Source: an uncultured Clostridia bacterium
GTDB lineage: Bacteria; Bacillota; Clostridia; TANB77; CAG-465
DNA length: 64,000 nt
NCBI GenBank assembly: GCA_944388545.1
Contig: CALXJE010000040.1
Coordinates: 13,938-77,937 of the forward strand
Direction: 5' to 3'
In this document: positions 4,432 through 64,000 of the stretch, in pieces
How the letters are laid out: each line of letters opens with the position of its first letter
Numbering within the stretch: position 1 is the first letter of the stretch
Program-made: the position numbers and the translations under genes
Notes under the pieces: model-generated
Told to the model about the DNA's origin: nothing
Database searches by the model: none
The model's input: the letters and a program-made list of their open reading frames with translations, nothing else

Positions 4432-4445
4432 TTTATCCTCCTTTA

Positions 4446-5327: not shown

Positions 5328-5878
5328 CTTCCTTCATCTATAGAATATATACAGCCACAATATTTTTGTCTATACAACCCTAGCTCTCTTGCTTTATTTT
5401 GTCCTTCTCTAAATAATGGTCTATAGTCTCTATACATGAATTCAACATTATATTTATTTGCTAGTTTGCTACATACTTTCTTTATTAAATCATGTTTTTG
5501 ATATGGACTTATTAAAAGTGTAGTAGTTACATGGGTATACCCATTTTCTTTTGCATATTCAAATACTTTTTCAAGTCTTGAAGTATAACAATATTCACAC
5601 CTTAATTTAAATTCTGTTTTATCTATATTAACTACATCATATATAAATTTATTCATATCATACTCATCTAACACAATAGGTTTTTTGCCCATTTTAGATA
5701 TATATGATATATATGTATCTTTTCTTTTTTCATATTCTACTTTAGGATGAATGTTAGTATTATACCATATAGTATCAAAACTATCTATATTTATTTCATC
5801 CATATTATTTATTGTATCATCATATACTGCCACCATACATGGCGCACAACATGCATGAATAAGTAATTTATTCTTCAT
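5312..5878 (-). CDS. queH: Epoxyqueuosine reductase QueH (DUF208)
   Basis: N-terminal [10 protein letters not shown] and C-terminal CEYCYTSR...YCGCIYS cysteine motifs typical of QueH. Confidence 0.75.
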
Positions 5879-6875
5879 ATTTTACCCCCATGTGATAATA
5901 AGCTAATTTTGTTGCAACCCTACCCCTAGGGGTTCGATTAATAAATCCAATTTGCATAAGATATGGCTCATAAACATCCTCTATTGTATCTTTATCTTCA
6001 CCAATTGCAGCCGCCATAGCTTCAAGTCCTACAGGTCTTCCTCCAAATTTATCAATCATTGTCATTAAAATTTTTCTATCTATATCATCTAACCCATATT
6101 CATCAATCTCTAATCTATTTAATGCATCGTGCGCTATTTCATAGTCTATACTATTACTTGATTTATTTGTTGCAAAGTCTCTTACTCTTTTAAGAAGCCT
6201 ATTTGCAATTCTAGGAGTGCCTCTACTTCTGCTTCCGATTTCTAACGCTGCTTCATGCGTTATATCTATATTTAATATTCCTGCACTTCTTTCTATAATA
6301 GTTGCAAGTTCTTTTTCATCATACATACTTAATCTATGTATAATACCAAATCTATCACGAAGTGGCCCTGATAATGAACCTGCTTTTGTTGTTGCTCCTA
6401 CAAGTGTAAATTTAGGAAGATCAATTCTAATTGATCTTGCAGAAGGGCCTTTTCCAATCATTATATCAAGGTTAAAATCCTCTAATGCTGGATATAACAC
6501 TTCTTCTACACTTTTTTTAAGTCTATGTATTTCGTCAATAAATAACAAATCATTTTCTTCTAAATTTGTAAGTATTGCAGCCAAATCTCCTGGTTTTTCT
6601 ATCGCAGGTCCTGATGTTATTTTTATATTAACTCCCATTTCTGATGCTATTATACTTGCAAGAGTCGTTTTACCAAGTCCTGGTGGTCCATAGAGCAGAA
6701 CATGATCTAGCGGTTCTTTTCTAGTAAGAGCTGCATCAATATATATTTTCATATTTTCTTTAACCTTAGTTTGTCCAATATATTCCGAAAAACTTCTAGG
6801 TCTAAGATTTATTTCTACTTCTGGTACATCTATCTCCTCATCATATTCAGGAGATATTACTCTATCTTCAATCAT
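5868..6875 (-). CDS. ruvB: Holliday junction branch migration ATPase RuvB
   Basis: [12 protein letters not shown]...[14 protein letters not shown] Walker A, sensor and arginine-finger regions, winged-helix C-terminus. Confidence 0.9.
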
Positions 6876-6960
6876 TAGTCTTCTCCTTACATTTTAACGT
6901 ATAAATTATACCACTAATATATATATTAATGCAACTTAAAAAGAGAATATATTACAAAAA

Positions 6961-6998
6961 ATATGAGACTACAAATTAATGTAGTCCCATATTTTTTC
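6961..6998 (-). terminator. Rho-independent terminator downstream of the ClpN-AAA-M41 gene
   Basis: Minus-strand reads ATGGGACTACA-TTAATTT-GTAGTCTCAT (one mismatch) followed by a U-run. Confidence 0.45.
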
Positions 6999-7047
6999 TG
7001 TGTTTAACTAACAAAGTTTATTTTATAGCACTTTTTATTTAGGTTCT

Positions 7048-9093
7048 TTACACTTGCAAAAAACATTCTAATTCTTCAGATGTGACTATTTTCTTTTTCA
7101 TAAGATATTTTGCCATACTTTCTATCTCACTCCAATGATCAGTCACAAATTGTTCAGTTTTGTCATATACCTTTCTAATAAGATCATTTGCTTTTTCATC
7201 AATTTTTATTGCAAGCTTTTCATTAAACAAATCATCGTCTAAAAGATAAATATTTTTGTATTCATCATCATCCATACCAAATTCTGCTATAACACTTTTA
7301 GCAAACTTTTTGGCTTTTTCTAAATCAGACGATGCTCCACTATCTATTCTTTTAGAAATTCTCTGTTGCGCTACTCTTCCTGCAAGTAGAGACATAATAT
7401 ATGCCTCTGCATACTCATGATCTATAGATATTATAGTATCTCTTTTTTCTAGCACATTAACTCCAAGATAATCGGCAGAAGGGATTATTGATATAGCTGT
7501 AACCTTATGAGCTTCATTTTCTTTTGTAAGTCTAGTAACAATATAATGTCCTATTTCATGGTAAGCAGTACAAAGCAAAGTATGTTTATCACACTTTATT
7601 TGTTTTTCAAAAAGTTCCTCATATACTTTGTTTACATCTTCTTTTGATGTTAACTTCTTACCTTTCATTTTAGCTATAGCCATACTTCTATCACAAAGAT
7701 CAAGCGTCTTGTCAGGATTACAGTTATCTGAATTAAAGCAACTTGAGCACAGAATAATATAATCGACTAGTTTGCTGGGTATTCTTACACCATGATACTT
7801 TTCCATGCTTTTTATTTTTGCTTTAATCATTCCTTTTACTTCACTTATTTTAGGTTCTTTTATTATTATAACCTCAAACCGTCTTTTAAAGGCGCCATCT
7901 CTTGATAGAATTTGGTTATATTCGTTTGTAGTTGTTGCGCCAACGAACACTACATCGTCTCTAGAAAGAATAGGCTTTAAAGATCCACTAAGATCAACAT
8001 TTCCTTCTGATGTTCCTCCTGCACCAAGCATTTGATGCATCTCATCAACAAATAGTATAATATTAGGTGTGTTCTCAAGAAATTGCTTTAAGATAGTCAC
8101 CTTAGTTTCAAATTCTCCTCTGTACTTAGTTCCTGCTACCATAGCATTTACATCCAGTGATAGCACAGTATAATTGTAGAATTCCTTTGGTGCTGTTTGA
8201 TTTACTATATGCTGTGTTATTGCCTCTATAATCGCTGTTTTACCTACTCCTGGCTCACCAACTAGTACTGCATTTCTCTTAGTTTTTTTAGAAAAGATGT
8301 TAAATGCCTTAAATATTTCTTTATCTCTACCTAGTATAGTACATTCTTCTCCTTTTTCATACTTGTTATTTAATACTTCAATACAAGATTCTAATGAAGG
8401 AGGAACAACTATCGGAAGAATTTCACTAGCTTCTGCATCAAGGATATTTGCGCCTAATTTAATACTTGATATGAATTCTTCTATATCTATTTGCATCTGT
8501 TTTAAAAGAAAGCTTAAAAACTTATATGCGCTACTTTCTTTATTTTTCAAAATACAATATAGAAGAACATTCAAATCAATGTAATCAAGACCCATAGCCC
8601 TGCATGTTTTTGATGCATCTTCGAGAGCCATCTCTAATTTATCAGAATAAAGCAATTCAATTATGCAATCATTAATTTCAAAGTTTTCTGCATCAGCAGT
8701 CACCTCTATTATTCCACTTAATACCTTAAGAACTTTACTTGCAATTTCATCATCTTCTGATAAATTAAAGTCAGAACATTTTAATAATGGTTCATTTTCT
8801 TCTTCCTCTGTTTCTTCATTAACAGTTTGGTCAAAGTAAGTATCAGCTGCTTCTTTTCCAAATATTTCTTCGTATATTTCTCTACTATTTAATATCTGAA
8901 AAACATCTGCTACAAGTGCAATTCCCATATCCAAAAAAAATTGTGTTATAATTGATTCTTGATTATTAAGAGCAGCAAATAATACATATGCGCTCCTTAC
9001 TTTTTCATCATCAAATTCGTTGGCAATAACTGTTGCAACCTCAAATGCTCTCCGAACCTCAGCGCTAACTTTAGCTTCATTCCAATTACTCAT
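7048..9093 (-). CDS. Soluble AAA+ protease: Clp-N domain + single ClpA/ClpC D1-type AAA+ module + FtsH-type M41 zinc peptidase domain
   Basis: N-terminal Clp_N-like repeats. Walker A LVGEPGVGKTAIIEAI, Walker B ILFVDEMHQM, sensor RDGAFKRRFEVI (all ClpA D1-like). C-terminus TAYHEIGHYIV...HKVTAISIIPS...LLAGRVAQ...GASSDLEKA aligns with FtsH TAYHEAGHA/HKVTIIPRG/LGGRxAEE/GASNDI. No TM segments. Confidence 0.7.
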   Translation of the reverse strand: MSNWNEAKVSAEVRRAFEVATVIANEFDDEKVRSAYVLFAALNNQESIITQFFLDMGIALVADVFQILNSREIYEEIFGKEAADTYFDQTVNEETEEEENEPLLKCSDFNLSEDDEIASKVLKVLSGIIEVTADAENFEINDCIIELLYSDKLEMALEDASKTCRAMGLDYIDLNVLLYCILKNKESSAYKFLSFLLKQMQIDIEEFISSIKLGANILDAEASEILPIVVPPSLESCIEVLNNKYEKGEECTILGRDKEIFKAFNIFSKKTKRNAVLVGEPGVGKTAIIEAITQHIVNQTAPKEFYNYTVLSLDVNAMVAGTKYRGEFETKVTILKQFLENTPNIILFVDEMHQMLGAGGTSEGNVDLSGSLKPILSRDDVVFVGATTTNEYNQILSRDGAFKRRFEVIIIKEPKISEVKGMIKAKIKSMEKYHGVRIPSKLVDYIILCSSCFNSDNCNPDKTLDLCDRSMAIAKMKGKKLTSKEDVNKVYEELFEKQIKCDKHTLLCTAYHEIGHYIVTRLTKENEAHKVTAISIIPSADYLGVNVLEKRDTIISIDHEYAEAYIMSLLAGRVAQQRISKRIDSGASSDLEKAKKFAKSVIAEFGMDDDEYKNIYLLDDDLFNEKLAIKIDEKANDLIRKVYDKTEQFVTDHWSEIESMAKYLMKKKIVTSEELECFLQV

Positions 9094-39920: not shown

Positions 39921-39960
39921 TTTACCTCATCATTTCTATTTATACTATATATGTTATGGC

Positions 39961-40521
39961 AATATACTAAGTAAATTTTGCGGCTTAAGGTCAAGTTGGA
40001 TTTCCCCGATCGTTACTACTAGTTACCTTATAGCGGTTTCCCTTTAAAACAATCGACTAATAGTCACCTGATTAGTTACTCGATTACCACTGAGACCACA
40101 CTTCAATCCTTAATATATCAACATTATATGTTACAGTCTAGAGGTTTTCCCTAACAAAACTTAAACTATCTTTATCCGCTTTTGCAAATATAATTTCAAG
40201 AAACAGATATATAATCCACATGGCCTAAGAGGATTATATATGAACTTTCTATCCCGTATATTCACTCACGACAGGCTACAATATATATAGTACTCTCTAT
40301 ATATATGGTTACGTTTTAAATAGAGAAATAACTTAAAACGTGAGCTGAAAAAAAGGCAGTGCTTTTGTATGCCATTACAAATCCACCTTAATTTCTAAAA
40401 ACTCATACATACACCCCAGTCTGGGCGACCAAAGCATATATACAAGCCGCTAATATGTGCCTTTTAATGGATTTTTAGGCCCATCTTCAAATAGTGTTTT
40501 GACTAGAATACTGCGCCATAC
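39961..40521 (-). ncRNA. Large structured non-coding RNA, candidate OLE (ornate large extremophilic) RNA
   Basis: About 560 nt with no ORF in any frame. Locally higher GC than the flanks. Its own consensus sigma-A promoter on the minus strand. Immediately upstream of the oapA-like gene. Ends are approximate. Confidence 0.55.
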
Positions 40522-40528
40522 AACATAT

Positions 40529-40557
40529 ATTATACCATTTTAAAATAAAATAGTCAA
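40529..40557 (-). promoter_or_regulatory. Sigma-A promoter driving the ncRNA
   Basis: Minus strand TTGACT (40557-40552), 17-nt spacer, TATAAT (40534-40529). Confidence 0.7.
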
Positions 40558-50685: not shown

Positions 50686-51357
50686 TTATAATAAAAAAGA
50701 GGGTGTCCTAAAATAGGAACCCGAAAGCCAGAAAATCCAGCTCGATAAGAGTTGGATTTTTTGGTTTGAAAATTTGATTATATTTTTTAGTAGCAAGATG
50801 GCTTTTACCATCGCTTCTTCTTTTAAATTTTCTATATCTTTCATTAACTCGTGTACTTGCTCTTGAAGTTTTACTCTATATTTTTCTACTGCCTTTTTCC
50901 ATACAAATGTGTACTTATTTGCATTTGCCTCAATTTTCGTTCCATCTACAAAGTATTCTTCTGTGCTTATATATCCCTTCTTTTCTAATACTACAAGCAA
51001 TTCTACAAATACATCTTCCATTATGATTTTCATTTTGTCTTTTCTAAATGAATTAATTACATTTCTTGTTGGCTTATTTCCTCCTGCTAACCATATGAAT
51101 TTTATGTCACATTGTACTGCTTCTGCTATTTGTCTTGATGAGTACTTTTTTCTAATATACCCATACATTAATATTTTTAGCATCATTTTTGGAGAGTATG
51201 AATTACTTCCCAAAGGTGAATATGTTTCTATCAGTTTATCAATATTCATATTATCAATTAAATCATTTATCACAAATACTATATCATCTTTATCTATCAA
51301 TGTTTTCCATTCCATTGGTATCATTAATTGGTTTTGTTCATAATATTTAAATCCCAT
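50686..51357 (-). pseudogene. Truncated transposase (N-terminal half only)
   Basis: MGFKYYEQNQLM...MLKILMYGYIRKKYSSRQIAEAVQCDIKFIWLAGGNKPTRNVINSFRK typical of IS1182/IS5 N-terminal domain. No DDE catalytic half. 224 aa versus over 450 expected. Confidence 0.7.
50694..50760. repeat. Left terminal inverted repeat (67 bp)
   Basis: AAAAAGAGGGTGTCCTAAAATAGGAACCCGAAAGCCAGAAAATCCAGCTCGATAAGAGTTGGATTTT. Confidence 0.9.
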
Positions 51358-51446
51358 TTTTATACCTCCAAAGTCGCTATTTTTCACACCTGAATTATAT
51401 CATTAAAGTATTGATTTGTCAGTATTTAGGACGATTTTTAGCAAAG

Positions 51447-51530: not shown

Positions 51531-52739
51531 TTAAATTATTAATTCTAGCGGTAACTGATGACTTAAGAACCACAGAGTAGATGCGCTGTAGCAATAAGCA
51601 CCAGACTGAGTCAAAACAACAATATCTCCAATACTTGCATGTTCGATTGGCTCATCCCATGATATTTTATCTTCCGTCATACATAACGGTCCTTCAATAT
51701 CTACAATTTCATTTGAAACTTCGATTTGTTCATTATAAAGTTTGGGAATTTCCATATTTATAACATACACAGGATGTTTTCTATCAGTAGCAATAGGTAG
51801 TCTCATATGATTTACGCCACCAGCGGTTACAATATGCTTCATTCCCTTGCATTCTTTAATATCTACAATTCTTGTAGCATAATAACCTGCACTACCAACA
51901 ATATACTTTCCAAGTTCGAGGATGAATTCTTTTTTTTCAAAAGAATATTTCTCAATAGCAAACTTTAATCCTTCAAAGTATGCTTTAACATCAAAATATC
52001 TGTTTGATTTAGTATAATCTATTCCAAACCCTCCTCCAAAATCAATGACATCAATATTGCCAACTACCTGTTCTGCCTCTTTAACAAACTTAAATACAAA
52101 GTCTATATATTTAAGTAAAATCTGATAATCAAGTACACCATCTGCTGCAAACACGTGAAAACCACACACATTAATATGATCAAGTTTAGAAATAATTTCA
52201 TAGTCTTCATAAAATCTAGACTGATCTATTCCCATTTTTGTTGACATTCCTGCCATATACTCGAAAGCACCATCTAAAAAGTAATTAATATTAACTCTTA
52301 AAAGTACATTTACCTTTTCAATATCTTCTTCTTCAGCAATCGCATTAATGCGAATAGCTTCAACCACAGACTCTACATTAATAAATCTGATTTTTTCTTT
52401 TACAGCTTCATTAAGTTCAACTGTTGTTTTTCCAGGGCCTGTAAAAAGTACTTTAGAAGCACTTTCAAGACCAGCTGCTCTTGCAATGTTCAGTTCTCCA
52501 ATAGATGCAATTTCAACTCCAGTAATTCCACTATTAGCTAAGACATGTCTTAAAATATCTTTATTGGGGTTAGCTTTCATTGCATAATATAAAGAAACAT
52601 TTGCAAGCTTAAAGTTATTGATTTCATTTATTCTGTCTGTGACTTCTTCCAAGTCATAAATATAACATGTAGGATTTGACATTACTTCATGATTTGAAGC
52701 AAATACAGATTTAATATAATCTTCCACTTTTCTTTTCAT
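51531..52739 (-). CDS. Fold-III PLP-dependent decarboxylase (Orn/DAP/Arg decarboxylase family)
   Basis: RBS GGAGG plus MKRKVEDYI. PLP-lysine motif YAMKANPN. GGG and cysteine regions (EGPLCMTED). Confidence 0.75.
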   Translation of the reverse strand: MKRKVEDYIKSVFASNHEVMSNPTCYIYDLEEVTDRINEINNFKLANVSLYYAMKANPNKDILRHVLANSGITGVEIASIGELNIARAAGLESASKVLFTGPGKTTVELNEAVKEKIRFINVESVVEAIRINAIAEEEDIEKVNVLLRVNINYFLDGAFEYMAGMSTKMGIDQSRFYEDYEIISKLDHINVCGFHVFAADGVLDYQILLKYIDFVFKFVKEAEQVVGNIDVIDFGGGFGIDYTKSNRYFDVKAYFEGLKFAIEKYSFEKKEFILELGKYIVGSAGYYATRIVDIKECKGMKHIVTAGGVNHMRLPIATDRKHPVYVINMEIPKLYNEQIEVSNEIVDIEGPLCMTEDKISWDEPIEHASIGDIVVLTQSGAYCYSASTLWFLSHQLPLELII

Positions 52740-52825
52740 AAAAAATGCCTCCATTCTGAAATCAAAAAAGCAGGGTAACATAGTTGTAGCAATTATGCTA
52801 CCCTACTTTTTAACAAGTTACTGAA

Positions 52826-54502
52826 TTACTCTCTTTTTGAACCTTTTCTGATAACTACCTGTTTTTCGTCTTCCAAATGTGAGATAGTAGCATGTTTATG
52901 GTAATAATCATAATTGCCTAAGTAATTGGTAAATTTACCATTTTCAAGTTCAACCACTCTGTTTGCTACCTTGTTAATGAAATATCTATCATGAGATACA
53001 AAAAGTACCGTACCATTAAATCTGTTCAAAGCTTCTTCTAAAATCTCACGATTTCTAACATCTAAATGGTTAGTAGGTTCATCTAAAACTAAAAAGTTAA
53101 CATCATTTTGAACAAGTTCTGCAAATTTAAGTCTTACTTTTTCTCCACCAGAAAGGGAAGAAATACGTTTATGAACTTCTTCTCCATAAAAATGAAAAGA
53201 GGCGAGAGTAGAATATGCTTGAGTAAGATTACCTATATAATGTTTCTGAAATTCTTGAAGAATAGTTATATCTTCATTTTCAAAACAAACATTCTGAGGT
53301 AAATAACCAATTTTGACATTACATCCAATAACTGCTTTTCCATCAAATCCATCAAGCTGTCCTAATACAATCTTAAGAACAGTGGATTTACCACACCCAT
53401 TTTTTCCAATAAGGCACACTTTATCCTGATATGCAATTTCCATGCTTGCTCCATCAAGGATAATATTGTCACCATCATAAGAAAAATACAAATCTTCAAG
53501 TATTAATACATCATTTCCAGACCTAGTATCCTGATTAAACTTTAGAGCAATATCCTTCTCAGTTTTAGGCTTTTCAACTTTGTCCATTTCGTCAATACGT
53601 CTTTCAAGCTGTTTTGCAACTCTATATGCTTTTTCGGAACTTTGAGCACCCCAAGATCTATTCTTACGAATAGTTTCTTCCATATCAGCTATTTTTTTCT
53701 GCTGAGTAACATAAGCCTGTTCCAGTGCTTCACGTTCAATAGTTAAAGTTTCAACATACTGAGTATAATTTCCAAAATAAGTCTTAATTTTGTTATTTGC
53801 AATAGCAAATACTTTGTTTATCGTTCTATCCAAGAAATATCTGTCATGTGATACCAATAGCACAGAGCCTGAATATCCTTTGATAAAGTCTTCAAGCCAA
53901 CCAAGAGTTGGAATATCCAAATGATTAGTAGGCTCGTCCAACAGCAAAATATCTGGCTTTTGCAAAAGCATATGCGCAAGACATGCAATAGTCTTCTGTC
54001 CACCACTGAGTGAATTATATTCTTGATCTAATAATTTTATAATCTTAAGGTTTCCTGCCATTTTTTCAATATTTGCTTCAACCTCATATCCGCCCTTATT
54101 AAGAAATAGATCCTGAGTTTTTCCATAAGAATCCATTGCTTTTTCCAGATCCGCCTGTGAAGTAGCAGAATTACCCATAATTTTTTCCAGTTCACGCATT
54201 CTTTTCTGAAGTCTAGCAATATCACCATATGCTGTTCTTAAAAAATCTCGAACACTCATATCTTCTTTCATCGTAGGAGCAATCTGAGTTAAAAAGCCAA
54301 CTGTTGCATCTTTCCTCTTAGATACCGTTCCAGTAGTAGGTTTTTCCTTTCCAGCAATGAGCTTAAAAATTGAACTTTTTCCAGTTCCATTATCTCCAAC
54401 AATAGCAACCTTGTCCCCTCTATTAATCTGAAAAGTTGCACCTTCTAAGATGTTCTTAAATCCATAATTTAATGTAACATTATTTAGTTCTAGGTCTAAC
54501 AT
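52826..54502 (-). CDS. ABC-F family ATPase (two tandem NBDs, no TMD)
   Basis: Two Walker A (GDNGTGKSS, GKNGCGKST), two signature motifs (LSGGQK, LSGGEK). Linker between NBDs. 558 aa. Confidence 0.85.
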   Translation of the reverse strand: MLDLELNNVTLNYGFKNILEGATFQINRGDKVAIVGDNGTGKSSIFKLIAGKEKPTTGTVSKRKDATVGFLTQIAPTMKEDMSVRDFLRTAYGDIARLQKRMRELEKIMGNSATSQADLEKAMDSYGKTQDLFLNKGGYEVEANIEKMAGNLKIIKLLDQEYNSLSGGQKTIACLAHMLLQKPDILLLDEPTNHLDIPTLGWLEDFIKGYSGSVLLVSHDRYFLDRTINKVFAIANNKIKTYFGNYTQYVETLTIEREALEQAYVTQQKKIADMEETIRKNRSWGAQSSEKAYRVAKQLERRIDEMDKVEKPKTEKDIALKFNQDTRSGNDVLILEDLYFSYDGDNIILDGASMEIAYQDKVCLIGKNGCGKSTVLKIVLGQLDGFDGKAVIGCNVKIGYLPQNVCFENEDITILQEFQKHYIGNLTQAYSTLASFHFYGEEVHKRISSLSGGEKVRLKFAELVQNDVNFLVLDEPTNHLDVRNREILEEALNRFNGTVLFVSHDRYFINKVANRVVELENGKFTNYLGNYDYYHKHATISHLEDEKQVVIRKGSKRE

Positions 54503-54524: not shown

Positions 54525-55412
54525 TTAAACAGTTGTATTTATTTTTGTTGTCATATAACTTAAAGATTCCATAATTAAATTGACGATTGTTGTTCCTGTA
54601 ATTATTGGACCCTCGCAATCCGGATTATACTCTACAAAGTCCATACCAATGATTTTCTTTGAAAATTTAATAATTTTCTTTAAATACTTAATGGTTTCTT
54701 CATATGATGGTCCTCCAGGTTCAGGGCAATTGGTAGCAGGTGCGTAAATAGGATTAAGGAAATCCATATCAAACGTAATATATACATTTTTATCTTTAAG
54801 AAACTCCAAAAGACTATTAATCTCTTCTTCAATCTTATCATATGGTATAACAATGTTTCCCATTTTCCTACTTTCGCATATAGCTGGTTCACAATTCAAG
54901 TTTCCTCTGATTCCAAAATGAATAATTTTTGAAATTTGATTTATTTTACATATTTCATTCATAACAGAACCATGTGGATAGCCTTCAAAGTCATCAATAA
55001 AGTCACTATGAGCATCAAACTGTACTACAAGAATATCATCATAGTCCTTTGCCATTCTTTTTACTGTTTCATACGTAATACTATGGTCTCCTCCAACGAA
55101 AATTGGAGTGCATCCAGCCTGAAAATTCAACCTAAAAATCTTGTTTTCAAGTTCTTCTAAACTAGATGCACATACATTTCCTAAATCATAAGCTCGTGTG
55201 TCTTTTAAAATATATCCCTCTTCTGGACTATAGACTTTAAGAGGAATACTGCTTCCATCAGCATTGGCATATCGAAAAGATAATTCTCTTACCTTATCTG
55301 CCGCCTTTTGTACACCTAAAAGATAATCTGCACTACAATATTTAATACCTATAAAGCAAAAATCATAGGAATTCAAAGGATTTGTTTCCAGTTCAAGAAA
55401 TGTTTTTCTCAT
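54525..55412 (-). CDS. Arginase/agmatinase-family ureohydrolase (amidino/guanidino-hydrolase)
   Basis: Binuclear Mn motifs GGDHSIT, FDAHSD, DMDFLNP, DFVEYNP. Confidence 0.85.
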   Translation of the reverse strand: MRKTFLELETNPLNSYDFCFIGIKYCSADYLLGVQKAADKVRELSFRYANADGSSIPLKVYSPEEGYILKDTRAYDLGNVCASSLEELENKIFRLNFQAGCTPIFVGGDHSITYETVKRMAKDYDDILVVQFDAHSDFIDDFEGYPHGSVMNEICKINQISKIIHFGIRGNLNCEPAICESRKMGNIVIPYDKIEEEINSLLEFLKDKNVYITFDMDFLNPIYAPATNCPEPGGPSYEETIKYLKKIIKFSKKIIGMDFVEYNPDCEGPIITGTTIVNLIMESLSYMTTKINTTV

Positions 55413-56672
55413 TTATCTCTCCTCCTTAAACAATTTAACAATTCTTTTGATTCCATCCATGAACTGATCATAACCTCTTGAAATTGTAACTCTAAAACTT
55501 AAATCTTCCAATGGAAGACCAAATACATTTCCTGGCGTAACTAAAATATTTTCCCTTTCAAGAATGTATACAAAAAGTTCATGAGATGTATATACTCCTT
55601 TTTTATGACATGCGTCTTCTCTAAAAGTGATATATATAATATTTCCTGCATCAGGATATACTACATTCTCTACAACATCACTTTCATAGATAAGATACTT
55701 ATAGGTATCCTCAAAAAGAGTAATTATTTGATTGTGATACTGCTCCTTTTCTGCAATATACTGAAGTGTGTCAGGTGAATTTTCTCCTTTGTCTACATTA
55801 ACTCTTTGAGTCATTTCGACAATTCCAAGTGCTTCAAGGAAAGTTGAATTAGAATAGTTTACTGCTTCTCCAAGTTCCAATAACCATCCAATAAACTTAG
55901 GATCTTTGCAAATAGTCCATCCACAACGCAAATCACCAAGTTGAGGAATATCTTTACTGAATCCTTTTATTTTAACTAATTTCTTATAGTCATGTGCAAG
56001 TTTAAAAATTTGAACTCGCTTATCATTAAACATAGGAGCCTCCTCGAAAATCGCATCATATATAATATAGATGTCTTTTTCAATACAAAACTCCACAATT
56101 TTATTAAGCTCATCATAATCAATAAACTTACATGCAGGATTTGCTGGATTTGTAATTAAGAGAGCAACTGTCTTATCTGTATAAGCACTTACAACATTTT
56201 CAAATGTCAGCTTATAATCATTTAACTTATCCATAAAAACAACTTTTGGAATAATTCCATAGAAAGTTAAACTCTTCATAAGTCCAGCGTATGCAGGTAC
56301 AGGATAAATAATTTCAATATCGTTTGCAAAATTATATTCTCTTGCAATTACCTGTGCAATAAAATTAAGTGCGCCCGTTGTTCCATTTCCTCCAACAATT
56401 ACCTCATCATAGCTTATTTTTTGACCTTCAATGTAAGTTTCATGAATAGCAATCAGTTCTCTTAACCGTTTTTTCCCTCCTGGATAAGAGTATCCCCAAT
56501 CCATATCTTCGTTTGAATCTTCCAAGGTTCTATAAATTTCTTTCCTTATACAGGAAAAAAGTGGAAATGTAAACCAATCAAGATTAGATGCATCCATCAA
56601 GAGTGCATGTCGTTCAAGACCAATGTCAAAATATTGTGACATTGTAAGTTTCTCTTTGTGACTATTACTCAT
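55413..56672 (-). CDS. Class I/II (fold-type I) PLP aminotransferase
   Basis: NPANPAC and KGFSKDIPQLGDLRCGW (PLP-Lys). RBS GGAGG plus ATG 56672. 8-nt overlap with the upstream gene. Confidence 0.8.
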   Translation of the reverse strand: MSNSHKEKLTMSQYFDIGLERHALLMDASNLDWFTFPLFSCIRKEIYRTLEDSNEDMDWGYSYPGGKKRLRELIAIHETYIEGQKISYDEVIVGGNGTTGALNFIAQVIAREYNFANDIEIIYPVPAYAGLMKSLTFYGIIPKVVFMDKLNDYKLTFENVVSAYTDKTVALLITNPANPACKFIDYDELNKIVEFCIEKDIYIIYDAIFEEAPMFNDKRVQIFKLAHDYKKLVKIKGFSKDIPQLGDLRCGWTICKDPKFIGWLLELGEAVNYSNSTFLEALGIVEMTQRVNVDKGENSPDTLQYIAEKEQYHNQIITLFEDTYKYLIYESDVVENVVYPDAGNIIYITFREDACHKKGVYTSHELFVYILERENILVTPGNVFGLPLEDLSFRVTISRGYDQFMDGIKRIVKLFKEER

Positions 56673-57759
56673 GTAAGATACCTCCATTTCTATTTTTACA
56701 TGTAAGTACAGTAACAATAGTAGCATTTCTATTACATTTAATATATTCTTCCGTTGCAGCCATTGCTGAAATTGATGTATAGTCATATTTCGCCATAATT
56801 TCTGGATTCATTAAGATGAAACTATCAATCTGTGAATCATTAACAGAAATAAAAAAGGCTTCATTTCTACTAGCCATATCATAGATCTTCCTGTAATTGA
56901 AGCAAGTATCATTTGAAAGAATTGTTTTTGAACTAGTAGGATTTTCAATAACATATAAATAGCTATCTATCCCCTTTTCAAATCCCTGTTTAATAGGATT
57001 TCCTCCAATAATTTCTACCACTCCAATTTTAGGGATTTTTGATATGATTCCTGCATTGTACATTTCTCTAAATGCCAGATTTTGAGCAATAATATCCATA
57101 CCACTACCACAAGGAATAATAACAGTATCTGGTACTTCTTTCATATCTCTAATAATTTCATAAGCCATAGACCTAAGTCCTAACATATATGAAACATTAG
57201 TATTTAAAAAGCCCCAGAATACCTCCTTGTGTTCAAGTGAATACTCCATAAAGTCTTCATAGCTTTTTACAAAAGTGTCACTATAAAAAACTTCATCTGC
57301 ATTTTTAATTTGTTGTAAACTAAAATCATCAACTCCCCTATGAACAAATACAATAGATTTTATTCCATATTCCTTTGCATAATGAACAATTGAAATTGCA
57401 CCACTACCACAAGACACTACTGCTACTTCTCGCTTTTTGTGCATAATGATTTCGTTCATAAAGTTTTCCATACCACGATCTTTAAAACTTCCTGTTGGAT
57501 TAACAGATTCATCTTTTAAAAAGACATTTTCTGAATACCTAATAATAGGAGTATTCCTAGCCTTATTTTTTGTTTCTTTCTGAACTTTTGGAAGAATTAT
57601 TTTCCTATTTAAAAATTTAATTTCAAATTCAGGAAAATAATCCTTTATAGTCCAAAAGTTAGGAGGAACTAAGTCAAGCTCAATGTCACTATGTCTGTGA
57701 TTAATCTGCTCCATTGGATAAGAAAATTGTTTTTTACAAATTTCACAAACAAGTATCAT
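56665..57759 (-). CDS. Threonine-synthase-like fold-type II PLP enzyme
   Basis: N-terminal CxxC zinc ribbon. FLKDESVNPTGSFKDRG PLP-lysine motif. Confidence 0.8.
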   Translation of the reverse strand: MILVCEICKKQFSYPMEQINHRHSDIELDLVPPNFWTIKDYFPEFEIKFLNRKIILPKVQKETKNKARNTPIIRYSENVFLKDESVNPTGSFKDRGMENFMNEIIMHKKREVAVVSCGSGAISIVHYAKEYGIKSIVFVHRGVDDFSLQQIKNADEVFYSDTFVKSYEDFMEYSLEHKEVFWGFLNTNVSYMLGLRSMAYEIIRDMKEVPDTVIIPCGSGMDIIAQNLAFREMYNAGIISKIPKIGVVEIIGGNPIKQGFEKGIDSYLYVIENPTSSKTILSNDTCFNYRKIYDMASRNEAFFISVNDSQIDSFILMNPEIMAKYDYTSISAMAATEEYIKCNRNATIVTVLTCKNRNGGILHE

Positions 57760-57767
57760 GATAATGC

Positions 57768-58991
57768 TTACTCCTTTCTAAGAATGTCTTGAATACGTCT
57801 GATAATATCTCGAGAATCTCTTATTCTCTTAGTATCCTGCCATAAATTATAACAATGCTGACAATCTTTAACGTTATCTAATTCTTTAACATCATATGTC
57901 ATGTTAAATTGTTTAATAGCATATACAAATTCATTAGTACAATGACTGCAATTACTTGAAGTCATATGTGGGAAAATTTCATTTCTATCAGCAAACCCTG
58001 TTCCCTGACTACCACTTAAAACTTCTTCATCAAAATATCCTCCAAGCCTTATATCTAACTTTTCAAAATTTATCTCATTATAAATTCCATGAATAATATC
58101 TCTTAAACTCCAAAGCCATGGTACTCTATAAAATCCCAGATTATACAGATAATTAGCTAAAGAATTGTCCTGCAAAGATGTTGGTTCAATAGAAACAGCA
58201 TCAAAACCAAATTCCTTAAAACAATCTATCGAAGTTTTTATTGCATCTTCAATTGCTTCAGATTCAGTAAGAAAAATCGGTTTAAAATTGACATATGCTA
58301 GAGCTTTCATTCCAAATTTATGCAAATTTTTAACAGAATCTTCGATTATCCTAGTATCATCAATAGCTTTATGATGACATAGTTCTCTAATTAAAAAATT
58401 AGTAGATTCTACTCCTATTCCAACTTCAACTAACCCATCATAGGCGCTAGAAATAACGCTAAGAATATCATCTGTGACATATTCTGCACGTGATTCAATA
58501 ATAACCTTTTTTACACCTTTGTACTTGTTTAAAGTCTCAAATATATATTTAACGGTTTCTACTGAAATCTCTTCTGGATTTAATAAGCTTCCTAAGTTAT
58601 ATACACAAACAACAGGATAATTATTAAGGTCAAAAGTTGAACCTACATTTTCTACAAAACTTCCATCTAATACAGAATTCCACTGTTCTACATAGTTTTG
58701 ATGTGTAATTTTTTCTGTAAGTGGAGCACCATTCAAATGTGCACACATTGAGCATCCACCATTTGTTTTATAGTGTTGACATCCATTAGATCTTAAAACG
58801 ATCATAACTCTTTCTACTGTTTTTCCTTCATAAAAAAATTTGTTAATCTCTACCTCTGCAATCTTAGTCTTTTCAAATGGTAAGTTTGGAGTATTAGCAC
58901 GCAACTCCTTGATTTTGTTTTCTACTAAACTAGAAGCCTTAGTATAAAAATCACATTCAGTACTTACTTTTTTTTCGCCAAATTTTTTCAT
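57768..58991 (-). CDS. Non-canonical radical-SAM-like enzyme (Cx8CxxC; Elp3/TIGR01212-like core)
   Basis: GCQHYKTNGGCSMC. Core blocks KKVIIESRAEYVTDD and VGIGVESTN...HHK...NLHKFGMKALAYV reminiscent of the radical SAM half-barrel. Extra C-terminal CxxC...CxxC. Confidence 0.5.
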   Translation of the reverse strand: MKKFGEKKVSTECDFYTKASSLVENKIKELRANTPNLPFEKTKIAEVEINKFFYEGKTVERVMIVLRSNGCQHYKTNGGCSMCAHLNGAPLTEKITHQNYVEQWNSVLDGSFVENVGSTFDLNNYPVVCVYNLGSLLNPEEISVETVKYIFETLNKYKGVKKVIIESRAEYVTDDILSVISSAYDGLVEVGIGVESTNFLIRELCHHKAIDDTRIIEDSVKNLHKFGMKALAYVNFKPIFLTESEAIEDAIKTSIDCFKEFGFDAVSIEPTSLQDNSLANYLYNLGFYRVPWLWSLRDIIHGIYNEINFEKLDIRLGGYFDEEVLSGSQGTGFADRNEIFPHMTSSNCSHCTNEFVYAIKQFNMTYDVKELDNVKDCQHCYNLWQDTKRIRDSRDIIRRIQDILRKE

Positions 58992-59145
58992 ACTGTTTAC
59001 CTCCTAACAAAGTATTTGACAATTTCAAACGTGTTTAATTTTAGGTTTGGTTTAGCATACTTTTTTATATAATTATTAACTTTTCAATGTGCTTTTGTCA
59101 AAAGATTTTATATTGAATATTAAGACTTTTCATAGTCCATTTACA

Positions 59146-60501
59146 TTATCCTAATCTAATGACAGATCTGTACTTTGTACCTTGATCATAAGGTAGTTTA
59201 TTCACTTTGTGAACAACAACCTCTGTGGTACGTGGTACTAAGGTATAAATGCTCTCTTTAATAGTAGGAATATCTAATGTATACTTTCCTTCAATTATAT
59301 AAAGATCAAGTTTTCCAATTTTAGTTTGTACAAATTGATATTTAAGTCCATGAACAGGGATATTATAAACTAAAAACCAGTTGTATGCGATATCCATAAA
59401 ACACGATGCCGGTATACTTTCACCAGTGTCAGTTATAATTGAATCCATATTACGACCTTTAACTCCTTCAATTATTCTGCCGTTATCTCCACAAGTACAT
59501 TTCTCATGTGTTGTAATTTTTACTAGATCACCTTGTATATAACGAATTATTGGAGTTGCAGTATTTAGTAAATTTGTACCTACTACAATTCCAATCTCAC
59601 CATTTGGAAGTTTTTTGCCATTTTTATCTACAATTTCAATAAAACATGCATCTTCTTCTAAATGATAATGATGTTTAGGACACTCTAATGCAATTCTTGT
59701 TAATTCTTCACTACTATATTCATCAAGAACATTTACGTCAAGTAATTCTGCAAGCATATTCCTCTGCTTTGCATTTGATTGCTCTGAATGAACAATCACG
59801 AGTTCTACTCCATAATTTGAGAGTTTGACTCCAGTTGATGCTATTTTTTCAAGATAAGTTGGATATGTAGAAATATATCTTGGCTTTGTTTCCATAATAT
59901 ATTTCACAGTTTCTTCGACTTTAGTTGTTGTTGGCAAATAATCTTGCTTATATTTACCACCTACATTGTTCACCCACCAAGGACAAGTGTAAATGTATAA
60001 TATGGTATCTTCAGCACAATACCTACCTCCCGACTGCATGTTAAACTGTCTAATTGTTTGCAACGTGTCCTTATATATTGCCTCTTCTGATACAGCAATC
60101 GTTACAAATTCACCACTTGAACCTGAGCTACGAGTTGAAAGTACAAAGTCATTGACATCTTTAACAATTTCATTCGGAAAACCTTCAATTAATTCCTCTT
60201 TATAAAGATATGGTAACTTAAAAAAATCATCCCATGTTTTTATACTACCTTTAACATATCCCACTTCAGAATATTTTTTTCTATACAATGGAATGTTATC
60301 AAAAGCATAATCAACAAGATAGCTTAATCTTTTGAGTTGCCATTTTCGAATATCTTCCAAAGGTTGATTAAGAAAAGTCATAAGATTGCTTCCAGACTCT
60401 TCTAACTGTTTTTGGAGTTTTTCATCATGAACAGGTAAAGTCATATAGCTTTTGCCTTTTTTTATTAAGTCAATGTACTCATTCTTAGAAATCTTTGCCA
60501 T
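59146..60501 (-). CDS. Phenylacetate-CoA ligase (PaaK)-like adenylate-forming enzyme
   Basis: RBS GGAGGGAGG plus MAKISKNEY. STRSSGSSGEF (P-loop-like AMP motif), YxxxDxxx C-terminal domain. 450 aa. Confidence 0.7.
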   Translation of the reverse strand: MAKISKNEYIDLIKKGKSYMTLPVHDEKLQKQLEESGSNLMTFLNQPLEDIRKWQLKRLSYLVDYAFDNIPLYRKKYSEVGYVKGSIKTWDDFFKLPYLYKEELIEGFPNEIVKDVNDFVLSTRSSGSSGEFVTIAVSEEAIYKDTLQTIRQFNMQSGGRYCAEDTILYIYTCPWWVNNVGGKYKQDYLPTTTKVEETVKYIMETKPRYISTYPTYLEKIASTGVKLSNYGVELVIVHSEQSNAKQRNMLAELLDVNVLDEYSSEELTRIALECPKHHYHLEEDACFIEIVDKNGKKLPNGEIGIVVGTNLLNTATPIIRYIQGDLVKITTHEKCTCGDNGRIIEGVKGRNMDSIITDTGESIPASCFMDIAYNWFLVYNIPVHGLKYQFVQTKIGKLDLYIIEGKYTLDIPTIKESIYTLVPRTTEVVVHKVNKLPYDQGTKYRSVIRLG

Positions 60502-60766
60502 AATTCCTCCCTCCTTAAAAAAATTCATCTACTAATATTGTTTTGACTATCTTTATTTGTAGTATAATTACACTACAAAACATTTACCAAAATAATTAAA
60601 GGCAAATATATTGATAACCGGTAATATTTTATCATTTTATGTTAACAGAGTCAATAGTTTTAATTGTTGTATTAAGTTGTTTTTTCAGTATTTTTAAGTA
60701 TTTAGAGAATATTTTATAAAAAAATAAAGCTTAATTAAAATTAAACCTTATTTTTTATAATCATTA

Positions 60767-61186
60767 TTATACTTTTTTATCTTCTAAATCTTGACTAAAT
60801 CTTAATAAATATCCATTTGGATCCTGTACTAGAAACTCCCTACATCCCATTAAAACATTATCTTTTCTATACCAATGATCTTCCATATCTACAAATATTT
60901 TATAATTTTCTCTCTTGAGTCTATTATATATTTCATCTATATTACTTACATCTATTTGAAAATTAATTCCTACTCCTAGTGGATATTCTAATTTTCCAGT
61001 TCCCCATTTATTACTTTTTTGATCTATTTCTTGTATCATAAGTTGCACATTTTCAAGCTGTAAAAATGCAAATCGATCTTCTTTTCTATCATATACTATA
61101 TTAAATCCAATCAGCTTTACATAAAATTCCAAACTATCATTTAAATCAAAAACGTCAAATTCTGGTAACATTTGATTCCATTTCAT
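60767..61186 (-). CDS. VOC (glyoxalase/bleomycin-resistance/dioxygenase) superfamily protein
   Basis: 139 aa, beta-alpha-beta-beta-beta module pattern. N-terminal FDVFDLNDSLEFYVKLIGF. Confidence 0.7.
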   Translation of the reverse strand: MKWNQMLPEFDVFDLNDSLEFYVKLIGFNIVYDRKEDRFAFLQLENVQLMIQEIDQKSNKWGTGKLEYPLGVGINFQIDVSNIDEIYNRLKRENYKIFVDMEDHWYRKDNVLMGCREFLVQDPNGYLLRFSQDLEDKKV

Positions 61187-61818
61187 TTATATTCCCTCTT
61201 TACACTATTTATAGAAGTATACCATATTAATAATAAAAAGAAAAGATATTAACTATTATTTTTATTTATACACTCTTAAGATATTATTCTTATTCTGATA
61301 ATTTAATCTTTTTATCTAAATTGCTAATATATACATCGTTTGAATAATTAAAAACTAAAAAAGTAATATTTTTAATAATCTCTCTATGTGGCTCTATACA
61401 TGTAAGATCAATTTTTTCAAATTTTCTAATACTACCATTTATAAAAATAGGATTAACTTTAGAAAATGCACATATAAATTCAAGTCGTTGTTTTAGAGAT
61501 TTCTCAAATTGTAATTCTTACTTAATTATTTTAATTTACTTACGCCATCTTTTCGTTTGGATAATTTTAATATTGTTTTTAAGCAACAAAAAATCAACCA
61601 GATTTTATTTTCTGATTGATTTTGTATCTATTCTATAGGTCATTAGTGGGCAGGGAAATCGTATAATCTTTTAACTATTGGTATTAAAGCATTTTTTATT
61701 TTCGCTCGTGCATTTTGCGTGCAAATAAAATACCAACATATAATGTTATATATTGTTAGAAAATTACAAATAATTATAAGTATATTAACTATAAAATTGT
61801 AATTTATAGCTATTCTTA

Positions 61819-62129
61819 TTATAATAAATTTATCCAATTTCTTCTTCCGTACATAATTCTAACAATTTGAATATCCTTATCTTTTATTCTATAAATTATA
61901 ATATAGTTATCTACTATTAATTTTCTTATTTCTAGTTTTCTTATTATGTCGTCATCTATAATTATATATATTTCAGGGTTGTCTTTCAAATCATTTATTT
62001 CTTTTCTTATTTTAGAAATTAATTTTTTTGGCTATTTCTGGTTCCTGTAAATTATATTTAATATATTGCTTTATTCCTATTAAATCTTGTTTAGATTCCT
62101 TTGAATATTCTATATTATACTTTTTCACA
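61819..62129 (-). pseudogene. RelE/ParE-family toxin, frameshifted
   Basis: Frame 1 VKKYNIEYSKESKQDLIGIKQYIKYNLQEPEIAKKINF then stop. Continues in a second frame KIRKEINDLKDNPEIY...RKLIVDNYIIIYRIKDKDIQIVRIMYGRRNW. The shift lies in an A/T homopolymer near 62030. Confidence 0.55.
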
Positions 62130-62143
62130 AATAAACCTTCTTT

Positions 62144-62398
62144 CTATATTTTATCTAGTTCTTCATAAAGTTCTTCTTCAGAAATTTTTTCTCCTTTATC
62201 TAAAGAGTTTATCCCTTTTTCTAATTCTTTGTATAGTATATGCTTATCTGTTAAAAGTTCATATAATTCAATACTCATCACAGCTAAATCCCCTGCACCA
62301 TTTTTTGTAATATATACTGGACTATTAGTTTGATGACAAATCGTAGAAATTTCGTTATAATTGTTTCTTAAATCAGAGTTTGGTCTAATAATTGGCAT
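62144..62398 (-). CDS. Phd/YefM-family type II antitoxin
   Basis: MPIIRPNSDLRNNYNEISTICHQTNSPVYITKNGAGDLAVMSIELYELL. RBS GGAG upstream. Abuts the toxin pseudogene. Confidence 0.7.
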   Translation of the reverse strand: MPIIRPNSDLRNNYNEISTICHQTNSPVYITKNGAGDLAVMSIELYELLTDKHILYKELEKGINSLDKGEKISEEELYEELDKI

Positions 62399-62654
62399 AA
62401 TAAACATCTCCATTAATATTATATACATATATTATCGAAATATTGATATGTAGTCAATATTTTTTATAAATTATTTGAATAAAAAATTACTATTTATTGT
62501 TACTAATATAGTATCATAAAGAAGAATAATTATTAATTCTATGTAAAAACGAAAAAACAATAAAAATGGCAAGTAATTTTGAATATAGTTTAAATAATGA
62601 AAATTGGTGGAGTTAAGTAATATCAATACTTTTAAATAATTTTAGACAAAAATA

Positions 62655-62690: not shown

Positions 62691-62774
62691 GTGGGCAGGG
62701 ATGGATTCGAACCATCGTAGGCGAATGCCAACAGATTTACAGTCTGCCTCCTTTAGCCACTCGGACACCTACCC
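62689..62774 (-). tRNA. tRNA-Tyr (GTA), class II with long variable arm, CCA encoded
   Basis: GGGTAGGTGTCCGAGTGGCTAAAGGAGGCAGACTGTAAATCTGTTGGCATTCGCCTACGATGGTTCGAATCCATCCCTGCCCACCA. Anticodon loop CUGUAAAUC. Confidence 0.9.
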
Positions 62775-62785
62775 AAATAAAAAAA

Positions 62786-62862
62786 TGGTGGGCCTTCAGG
62801 GATTCGAACCCCGGACCAACCGGTTATGAGCCGGTTGCTCTGACCAACTGAGCTAAAGGCCC
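62786..62862 (-). tRNA. tRNA-Met (CAT), elongator-type; tRNA-Ile2/lysidine cannot be excluded
   Basis: GGGCCTTTAGCTCAGTTGGTCAGAGCAACCGGCTCATAACCGGTTGGTCCGGGGTTCGAATCCCTGAAGGCCCACCA. Anticodon stem lacks the three G-C pairs of initiators. Confidence 0.85.
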
Positions 62863-63027: not shown

Positions 63028-64000
63028 CTATTTATCTGTACTCATAAAGTCCTTTAATCTCTTACTTCTACTTGGATGTCTAAGCTTTCTTAATGCTTTT
63101 GCTTCTATCTGTCTTATTCTTTCACGAGTAACCATAAACTCTTTTCCTACTTCTTCTAATGTTCTAGTTCTCCCATCTTCAAGTCCAAATCTTAATCTAA
63201 GAACTTTTGCTTCTCTTGGAGTAAGTGTTTCCATTACATCTTCTATTTGCTCTCTTAAAAGCACGTCTGCTGCTTGATCAGATGGCGATGGTGCATCATC
63301 ATCTGGGATAAAATTACCAATATTACTATCCTCTTCTTCACCTACAGGTGTTTCTAAAGATATTGGCTCTTGAGCTATTTTTAATATTTCTCTCACCTTT
63401 TCTACTGGCATTTCCATTTCTTCTGCTATCTCTTCTGGAGTTGGCTCTCTTCCCATAACTTGAAGTAAGTGTCTAGATGTTCTTATTAATCTATTTATTG
63501 TTTCTACCATATGTACAGGTATTCTTATAGTTCTTGCTTGATCAGCTATAGATCTAGTTATGGCCTGTCTAATCCACCATGTAGCATAAGTACTAAATTT
63601 ATATCCTTTTGACGGATCAAATTTATCAACTGCCTTTATAAGGCCAAGATTTCCTTCTTGAATTAAATCTAAGAAATGCATTCCTCTACCTATATATCTT
63701 TTAGCAATACTTACTACTAATCTTAGATTAGACTCCACTAGTATTTTTTTAGCTTCTTTATCACCATTTACCATTTTAAATGCAAGATCTGTTTCTTCTT
63801 CTAGAGAAAGAAGTGGTATTTTACCTATTTCTTTTAAAAACATTCTTACAGGATCATCTACATTTAATGTCTCAGTAAATGACATATCATTTATATCTTC
63901 TAATAATATATCTTTTTCTATCTCGCTTATATCTTCCAAATTAGGTTCTATTTCAAGTTCTGCAATTGATGTTGTTGCATCTCCATTAGTAAGCTTTTCG
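63028..64000 (-). CDS. sigA: RNA polymerase sigma factor SigA/RpoD (C-terminal about 320 aa; N-terminus beyond window end)
   Basis: Regions 2-4: [55 protein letters not shown]..., helix-turn-helix [31 protein letters not shown] open to the window edge. Confidence 0.9.

Follow-up and report, generated by a model that had tools for sequence, protein, structure and literature searches.

Locus and radical SAM gene

The window analyzed here is a 64-kb stretch of DNA from a Clostridia metagenome-assembled genome (MAG) lineage. An operon of eight genes lies on its minus strand and encodes, in order, a glyoxalase-fold protein, a PaaK-like ligase, a radical S-adenosylmethionine (SAM) enzyme, a threonine-synthase-like (ThrC-like) enzyme, an aminotransferase-fold enzyme, a ureohydrolase, an ABC-F ATPase, and a LysA-like decarboxylase. 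The radical SAM gene, with which this report is concerned, occupies positions 57768..58991 of the minus strand and encodes 407 amino acids from an ATG start, with AGGAGG located 8 nt 5' of the ATG; the plus-strand frame over the same positions is stop-rich when translated. TIGR01210, AlphaFold2, and Foldseek together place the product among TIGR01210/RaSEA-like enzymes, in a clade paired with PaaK-like ligases.

The original prediction of a radical SAM-like enzyme at this site left the strand unstated. The open reading frame (ORF) and all the strings it quoted (GCQHYKTNGGCSMC, ESRAEYVTDD, GIGVES, HHK, SNCSHC, and CQHC) are present, on the minus strand. The protein is almost certainly a radical SAM enzyme in its predicted activity, and its assignment to a separate clade, paired with a ligase and encoded within a biosynthetic operon, is very probable. 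The novelty lies in this clade, a bacterial and uncharacterised group of RaSEA-like enzymes whose partner is new and whose context is biosynthesis, not tRNA; the cysteine motif itself is ordinary for the family. Taken as a whole, a radical SAM enzyme of a ligase-paired clade acting in a ligase-then-lyase pathway is the best explanation of the locus, and one in which our confidence is evenly balanced.

The protein has 433 word-indexed homologues, and an exhaustive search of 1.84 billion cluster representatives (50%-identity clustering level) returned 1116 relatives at E ≤ 1e-3. The nearest full-length relative beyond the 50% cluster of the query is 51% identical. A sequence search of the PDB gave no relevant match (best E 0.54). 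Conservation was assessed in a 98-sequence alignment, the remotest members of which are 22-35% identical to the query.

Family assignment and fold

TIGR01210 (RaSEA) was the sole significant curated model for the query in NCBIfam, with E 2.8e-54 and 184.5 bits over residues 55-385, a score that lies below the equivalog cut-off of 212.15 bits. The TIGR01212 and Elp3 (TIGR01211) models gave no match to the query at E ≤ 0.01. All 98 aligned homologues matched TIGR01210, and TIGR01212 was also matched by 34 of them, weakly, and Elp3 by 11. As originally proposed, the protein is a partial-barrel radical SAM enzyme that falls into the Elp3/YhcC-like subgroup and whose first two cysteines show extended spacing. 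The likeness to an Elp3/TIGR01212-type core holds at the level of this subgroup, but the closest family is the sister family TIGR01210 and not TIGR01212. None of the profile searches suggested as a check (PF04055, TIGR01212, and Elp3) was significant for the query. The PF04055 result counts against the assignment, as the match stayed below threshold (E 0.033, 14.8 versus 29.5 bits) and covered residues 150-246 only; this model appears to under-detect radical SAM subgroups with extended spacing.

The AlphaFold2 model of the enzyme, for which the 98-sequence alignment served as input, has a pLDDT of 90.3 and a pTM of 0.91. Strands and helices alternate over residues 57-306 and form the partial (beta/alpha)6 TIM barrel of radical SAM enzymes, so that the structural check suggested with the original prediction came out in its favor. 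Foldseek searches against the PDB placed Elp3 radical SAM domains first, followed by HydE, TsrM, CysS, MiaB, viperin, and LipA, at a probability of 1.00. The seven best Elp3 entries had E values of 6e-7 to 5e-6 and query-normalised TM-scores of 0.42-0.49. Among the 50 matches listed, most were radical SAM proteins and a few weaker ones were not (IMPDH, GMP reductase, and pyruvate carboxylase).

Elp3 is thus the best structural match of the query and shares its extended cysteine spacing, but it acts on tRNA with formation of a C-C bond and carries a fused GNAT/KAT domain. Pfam scans of the query identified neither a GNAT/KAT domain nor a recognisable RNA-binding domain.

Conserved motifs

The predicted [4Fe-4S]/SAM cluster loop G70-C83, GCQHYKTNGGCSMC, lies at 58743..58784 (minus strand) and has the arrangement C71-x8-C80-x2-C83. 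The three cysteines are invariant in the 98 homologues, as is G193, and they would hold the SAM-cleaving [4Fe-4S] cluster on the partial TIM barrel. The Cx8CxxC spacing had been regarded as non-canonical. It is indeed present, but it is the norm for the family, in which representatives show C-x(3-17)-C-x2-C, usually ending in GGC(T/S)MC, and it is not peculiar to this protein. Yeast Elp3 has the spacing CX9CX2C. Spacings of CX7, CX8, CX9, and CX11 have been catalogued for radical SAM subgroups (PMC9477430).

An NLGS sequence (residues 132-135; 58587..58598, minus strand) at the end of strand 2, which the AlphaFold2 model places at residues 127-132, is proposed as the equivalent of the GGE motif that binds the SAM amino group. 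G134 is nearly invariant, and G134/S135 are kept both in the PaaK-linked clade and in other family members. By analogy with radical SAM structures in general, NLGS may take part in SAM binding.

Two further core strand motifs are ESRAEY (residues 166-171; 58479..58496, minus strand), with which ESRAEYVTDD begins at residue 166, and GIGVES (residues 191-196; 58404..58421, minus strand). Family-wide conservation is seen for E166, S167, R168, and E170 in the former and for G191, E195, and S196 in the latter, around the invariant G193. A169 is clade-specific and is replaced by P in other family members. The motif C205-H206-H207-K208 (58368..58379, minus strand), identified by clade-versus-rest conservation, includes HHK at residues 206-208. 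Its His pair is a signature of the ligase-paired clade, the rest of the family having C-I-N-K; K208 and R202 are conserved throughout the family.

A 24-residue insert, GYFDEEVLSGSQGTGFADRNEIFP (residues 318-341; 57969..58040, minus strand), is at least 93% conserved in the clade and corresponds to a gap in the other subfamilies. Residues 327-339 of the insert are poorly ordered in the AlphaFold2 model (pLDDT <50), and the insert is a candidate lid or partner-contact loop.

At the C-terminus, four cysteines (C348xxC351 in SNCSHC and C377xxC380 in CQHC; 57852..57950, minus strand) are at least 90% conserved in the family. The original prediction treated these extra CxxC pairs as a special feature; they are present, but family-wide. 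Each pair is located at the N-terminus of a helix (352-365 and 381-389, pLDDT 85-97 in the AlphaFold2 model), a geometry typical of zinc knuckles or rubredoxin-like sites, and the only Pfam match in the region is a faint treble-clef hit (E 3.2). The four cysteines most likely form a predicted structural metal site of the zinc-knuckle or rubredoxin type, with an auxiliary cluster as a further candidate. As the Cys triad is invariant, the C-terminal cysteines are at least 90% conserved, and homologues are numerous, the motif and the conserved cysteines are not due to chance.

A ligase-paired clade distinct from RaSEA

In a neighbor-joining tree, ligase-linked sequences were monophyletic and stood apart from ArcS-linked, B3_4-linked, and other groups. 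Signatures of the clade are H85, C129, A169, the CHHK motif, and the 318-341 insert. The query has the ligase gene directly upstream, the CHHK motif, and the insert, and the window is unusual only in the spacer between the two genes.

The upstream partner is a PaaK/F390-synthetase-like adenylate-forming ligase of 460 amino acids (59146..60528, minus strand), assigned by NCBIfam and PDB matches. The NCBIfam models for the DVU_1553-family ligase, PaaK, FlxY, and F390 synthetase all matched below their cut-offs, and there was no Pfam match at all. In the PDB, PaaK (4r1l) was matched at E 1.6e-21, and NatL2-type PaaK-like and AjiA1 structures also matched. The ligase therefore resembles the amide/ester-forming NatL2-/AjiA1-type ligases and F390 synthetase, whose structures or models it matches, but its scores are far under the family cut-offs.

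The window proteins were compared with those of 77 metagenomic loci and of earlier loci, the metagenome scan being based on a 10-sequence alignment. The ligase gene is directly upstream of the radical SAM gene in 58 of 61 clade sequences (all at least 48% identical), and the remaining three either start at a contig end or have a DUF6271 gene upstream (L037). Such counts overstate the number of independent observations, as many loci are from closely related MAGs, and this weakens the argument from recurrence. The median gap between the ligase and radical SAM genes is 3 nt, with 52 of the 58 pairs separated by no more than 15 nt or overlapping, and the two genes are probably translationally coupled. 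The literature searched contained no example of such a ligase being paired with a radical SAM enzyme of the RaSEA-like kind.

The 154-nt spacer of the window (58992..59145, minus strand) is unusual, since most relatives have a gap of 5 nt or less or an overlap. It contains no meaningful ORF, and a sigma-70-like consensus match within it (59101..59072, 11/12 positions) is not evidence of function. A precursor peptide of the ribosomally made, post-translationally modified peptide (RiPP) type was considered and rejected because of the absence of a meaningful ORF and because the spacer is missing from relatives; a quick look at positions 3300-4150 of one related locus of another architecture (L039, type C below) showed no convincing conserved peptide either.

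The comparison with RaSEA, the beta-subunit of archaeosine synthase in Euryarchaeota, is informative. Both have the extended Cys triad, the core motifs, and the C-terminal Cys4, and both genes adjoin that of an enzyme thought to build their substrate. They differ in that the query is about 30% identical, falls in a separate clade, and is acidic (median pI of the clade 5.4 versus 8.4-8.8 for ArcS-linked members), and that it has an extra N-terminal helix, the CHHK motif, and the 24-residue insert. A PaaK-like ligase takes the place of ArcS as the partner, and the gene belongs to an amino-acid-tailoring operon in a bacterial host.

A horizontally acquired true RaSEA, forming an archaeosine-type amidine on 7-deazaguanine, would account for TIGR01210 being the only significant curated model, and a related protein is labeled "radical SAM enzyme (TIGR01210 family)" in JGI/IMG. 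The sub-cut-off score stands against it, as does the absence of ArcS/TGT homologues from the window in tblastn searches, in which B3_4 homologues were also not found. Moreover, ArcS (with TGT, DUF5591, TGT_C2, and PUA domains) is directly upstream only in L073, L082, and L090, which are about 30% identical to the query and belong to a different clade, while the conserved partner of the query is the ligase. The true-RaSEA explanation is already contradicted by these observations, and we regard it as highly improbable; the distinct ligase-paired clade is the reading retained.

A stand-alone B3_4 protein, from a domain family known from phenylalanyl-tRNA synthetase beta, consistently follows the radical SAM gene of a neighboring subfamily that is 32-36% identical (L018 6447-7037, L019 8234-8959, and L066 1382-2092).

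Other genes of the operon

The head of the cluster is a glyoxalase/bleomycin-resistance-fold protein of 139 amino acids (60767..61186, minus strand; PF00903, E 1.4e-6). It has weak matches to bleomycin-binding proteins and recurs in loci with the same architecture as the window (type A below) as well as in L044 and L051.

Downstream of the radical SAM gene, a 364-amino-acid threonine-synthase-like pyridoxal phosphate (PLP) enzyme of fold type II (56665..57759, minus strand; PF00291, E 5e-30) contains the SFKDR lysine motif, scores no more than 94 bits with ThrC models, below their cut-offs, and matches the ThrC structure 2zsj in the PDB at E 2.6e-16. It is followed by a class I/II aminotransferase-fold PLP enzyme (55413..56669, minus strand; PF00155). 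The mechanically called ORF of 457 amino acids (55413-56786) overlaps the ThrC-like gene by 122 nt, and the start is probably M40 (56669), as homologues have 418 amino acids. The best matches of this enzyme are GntC (101.6 bits), beta-methylarginine aminotransferase, and VioD, which are arginine-specific, and all are below their cut-offs. An agmatinase/arginase-family ureohydrolase of 295 amino acids (54525..55412, minus strand; PF00491, E 1e-47) scores 131 bits with the TIGR01230 agmatinase model, below the cut-off, and its translation contains the GGDHS, DAHSD, and DMD metal motifs.

These matches bring in another possible role for the radical SAM enzyme, namely a different radical reaction on a free amino acid, such as an arginine C-H activation that replaces an O2-dependent hydroxylase and feeds a GntC/VioD-like cyclisation, with the ligase acting elsewhere in the pathway. 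Besides the arginine-specific affinities of the aminotransferase-fold enzyme, enzymes that process guanidino groups recur in the clusters, and the hosts live anaerobically, a way of life in which oxygenases are often replaced by radical SAM enzymes (PMC13228596). The arginine-enzyme matches are all far under cut-offs, however, the radical SAM gene appears tightly coupled in translation to the ligase gene and not to the aminotransferase gene, and type C clusters keep the ligase-radical SAM pair without any PLP enzyme. On balance, this role is improbable, and the ligase-then-lyase pathway remains the preferred explanation.

The ABC-F ATPase of 558 amino acids (52826..54502, minus strand) passes the cut-off of the ribosomal protection-like ABC-F model NF000355 (454.8 bits versus 380) and is a candidate ribosome-protection or self-resistance factor. 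The last gene encodes a LysA-like PLP decarboxylase of fold type III with about 403 amino acids (51531..52742, minus strand; PF02784 and PF00278), scoring 245 bits with TIGR03099 and 214 bits with lysA, both below the cut-offs. A transposase-like fragment ORF is located directly downstream of it (50686-51387, minus strand), and in L001, L004, and other related MAGs this position is taken by a second, Uup-like ABC-F gene (about 630 amino acids), which is absent from the window.

No riboswitch or leader was detected upstream of the operon at the gathering threshold, nor at E ≤ 1 within 58900-62200, so this region offers no guanidine or T-box clue to function.

Related loci

The related loci, from uncultured and mostly gut-dwelling Clostridia, fall into three architectures. 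The window's eight-gene operon represents type A, which recurs in MAGs of uncultured Clostridia from the human, mouse, and rabbit gut. Type B loci (about 50% identity) retain the ligase, radical SAM, and ThrC-like genes, and the ligase-radical SAM-PALP order is kept in types A and B. Varying additions in type B are a ureohydrolase or an ADI/DDAH-like enzyme, a Ddl-like ATP-grasp ligase, an aminotransferase with a decarboxylase, and a C39-like peptidase. Type C and its variants (62-67% identity), including contigs from the human gut, combine one or two ligases and the radical SAM enzyme with neighbors such as a SPASM radical SAM protein, a GNAT protein, an M20 peptidase, ATP-grasp and HAD proteins, an ADI/DDAH-like enzyme, and a KamA/EpmB-like aminomutase. 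Across the loci, the clade is recurrently associated with guanidino-group and basic-amino-acid enzymes and with translation-associated NTPases.

In type C, the GNAT gene follows the radical SAM gene at a distance of 20 nt, an arrangement reminiscent of the acetyltransferase domain fused to Elp3. Together with the Elp3 radical SAM domains as best structural matches, and with the PDB match of the ligase to PaaK, whose family canonically makes acyl-CoA, this favors an Elp3-like chemistry in which the ligase would make an acyl-CoA or acyl-adenylate and the radical SAM enzyme, after removing a hydrogen from the acyl group, would add the acyl carbon radical to an acceptor with C-C bond formation, in the manner of Elp3 with acetyl-CoA on U34. 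The sequence affinity is nevertheless to TIGR01210 and not to Elp3, and neither the window nor the type B clusters have the GNAT gene. Its own weak matches are to resistance and N-terminal acetyltransferases (RimI, ArsN1, and Sat2). Elp3-like chemistry is therefore unlikely in our estimate, and cleavage rather than addition is the chemistry we prefer.

In type B, a GTPase with a TGS domain is often encoded upstream. In L045-L047, L051, and L054 it has about 305 amino acids, comprises MMR_HSR1 and TGS domains, and is encoded directly upstream of the ligase (about 5700-6620), and it stands where closer relatives have the ABC-F gene.

The presence of an ABC-F or, in type B, of the TGS-domain GTPase in these clusters could also mean that the enzymes modify the translation machinery itself (tRNA, rRNA, or a factor such as EF-P), with the operon supplying an amino-acid-derived group. 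The characterised relatives RaSEA, Elp3, and MnmL/YhcC all act on tRNA, the neighboring subfamily is paired with the B3_4 protein, one cluster has the EpmB/KamA-like aminomutase, and a deoxyhypusine-synthase-like gene is near the cluster in L014. Unlike the basic ArcS-linked enzymes, however, the clade is acidic, and it has no recognisable RNA-binding domain. The variable architecture (GNAT, M20, ATP-grasp, HAD, and ABC-2 exporter) is typical of secondary metabolism, and the distribution is patchy, with a transposase fragment beside the operon. Modification of the translation machinery seems unlikely. A small cationic substrate is favored over RNA in the ligase-then-lyase pathway because the clade is acidic and its neighbors are amino-acid-tailoring enzymes.

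In L014, a type B locus (3381-8378), the cluster adjoins the deoxyhypusine-synthase-like gene and genes for a Fur-family regulator and ZnuABC. A zincophore was considered on account of the Fur/ZnuABC neighbors and rejected, as the adjacency occurs in L014 and near-identical copies only and in no other type B locus.

Proposed function and mechanism

In the proposed pathway, the PaaK-like ligase would couple the amine of a basic amino acid to a carboxylate or some other activated group. The radical SAM enzyme would then abstract a hydrogen beside that nitrogen, after which the C-N bond would be cleaved. The amino-acid skeleton would be discarded, and its nitrogen would be retained in the product, in the form of a primary amide, amidine, or guanidine. 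The end product of the operon may be a cationic metabolite derived from arginine or lysine, possibly acting on the ribosome, and the ABC-F, GNAT, M20 peptidase, and glyoxalase-fold genes would provide producer immunity against a translation-targeting compound.

Precedents exist in RNA modification. RaSEA converts preQ0-lysine to the amidine archaeosine (G+) in a complex with the lysine-adding ArcS (PMC11298593), and YhcC/MnmL (TIGR01212) converts cmnm5s2U, made by MnmEG from glycine, to nm5s2U with removal of the glycine-derived carboxymethyl group (PMC13228596). The C-N lyase step is proposed because both enzymes strip an amino-acid skeleton off a nitrogen; as an analogy it is tentative, and we consider it possible rather than probable. 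The sister family MnmL/YtqA/YhcC is similar to the query in that its radical N-dealkylation follows the same formal logic, but it differs in its tRNA substrate, its basic cleft, and the lack of a described ligase partner.

In a broader form, the ligase and the radical SAM enzyme would constitute a new two-enzyme module of gut Clostridia that ligates an amino acid and trims it radically, building the amide, amidine, or guanidine warhead of ribosome-targeting cationic metabolites, with the ABC-F, GNAT, M20, and glyoxalase-fold proteins in the operon conferring immunity. This broader form is doubtful at present. By analogy, such a module would be the small-molecule counterpart of ArcS-RaSEA and MnmEG-MnmL. 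Support for the immunity component comes from the occurrence of an ABC-F gene (at least 450 amino acids) within 4 kb in 25 of the 27 loci whose radical SAM enzyme is at least 62% identical and whose flanks are long enough.

Several points weigh against this explanation. An ABC-F gene is within 4 kb in only 2 of the 13 more distant loci (about 50% identity), and ABC-F proteins also have housekeeping roles, which weakens the self-resistance interpretation. Elp3, the best structural match, forms a C-C bond and does not cleave a C-N bond, and PaaK-family enzymes usually make CoA thioesters and not amides. The RaSEA-type enzymes on which the lyase analogy draws are only about 30% identical, and the substrate, product, and activity of the clade are predicted only. 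Literature on the clade or the cluster was not found, subscription literature possibly excepted.

If the explanation is correct, bacterial secondary metabolism has drawn on a radical SAM family so far known from tRNA modification only and has given it a new partner, and the strategy of adding an amino acid and then cutting it radically down to its nitrogen reaches beyond RNA to small molecules. The operon occurs widely in uncultured Clostridia of the human, mouse, and rabbit gut and includes an ABC-F protein of the ribosome-protection type, which makes it a concrete lead to an unknown metabolite of the microbiome with translation as a possible target. The clade also offers a testable function for part of the large unannotated pool of proteins labeled "radical SAM protein."

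Other family members and the surroundings of the operon

Fusions of the radical SAM domain to a DDAH/ADI-like, an aminotransferase, or a TIR domain occur in other parts of the family. P0165 is a fusion of a RaSEA-like domain to a DDAH/arginine-deiminase-like domain and P0257 one to a class I/II aminotransferase domain, the counterparts of which are separate genes in the clusters. P0199 and P0239 have an N-terminal TIR domain, which suggests a defense-system branch of the family. In P0153 (277 amino acids), the N-terminal half of a radical SAM enzyme is followed by an arginase-family-like part (DAHGD); it is probably a frameshifted or chimeric contig and not a real fusion. Among the long family members, no radical SAM-ligase fusion was seen. 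The plasmid collection contained only relatives with 24-31% identity in unrelated contexts, on pSOL1-type plasmids of Clostridium acetobutylicum and in a FAS/PKS-like cluster on a Bacillus thuringiensis plasmid.

Upstream of the cluster are two tRNA genes (62692-62774 and 62789-62862, minus strand), flanked by a Phd/YefM-like antitoxin ORF (62144-62428) and an RpoD-like sigma factor gene (63028-63939). Elsewhere in the window, a full-length OLE (Ornate Large Extremophilic) RNA (RF01071) was identified at 39940-40535 on the minus strand (339.7 bits, E 8.5e-96), which is noteworthy in a genome that seems to be from uncultured gut Clostridia.

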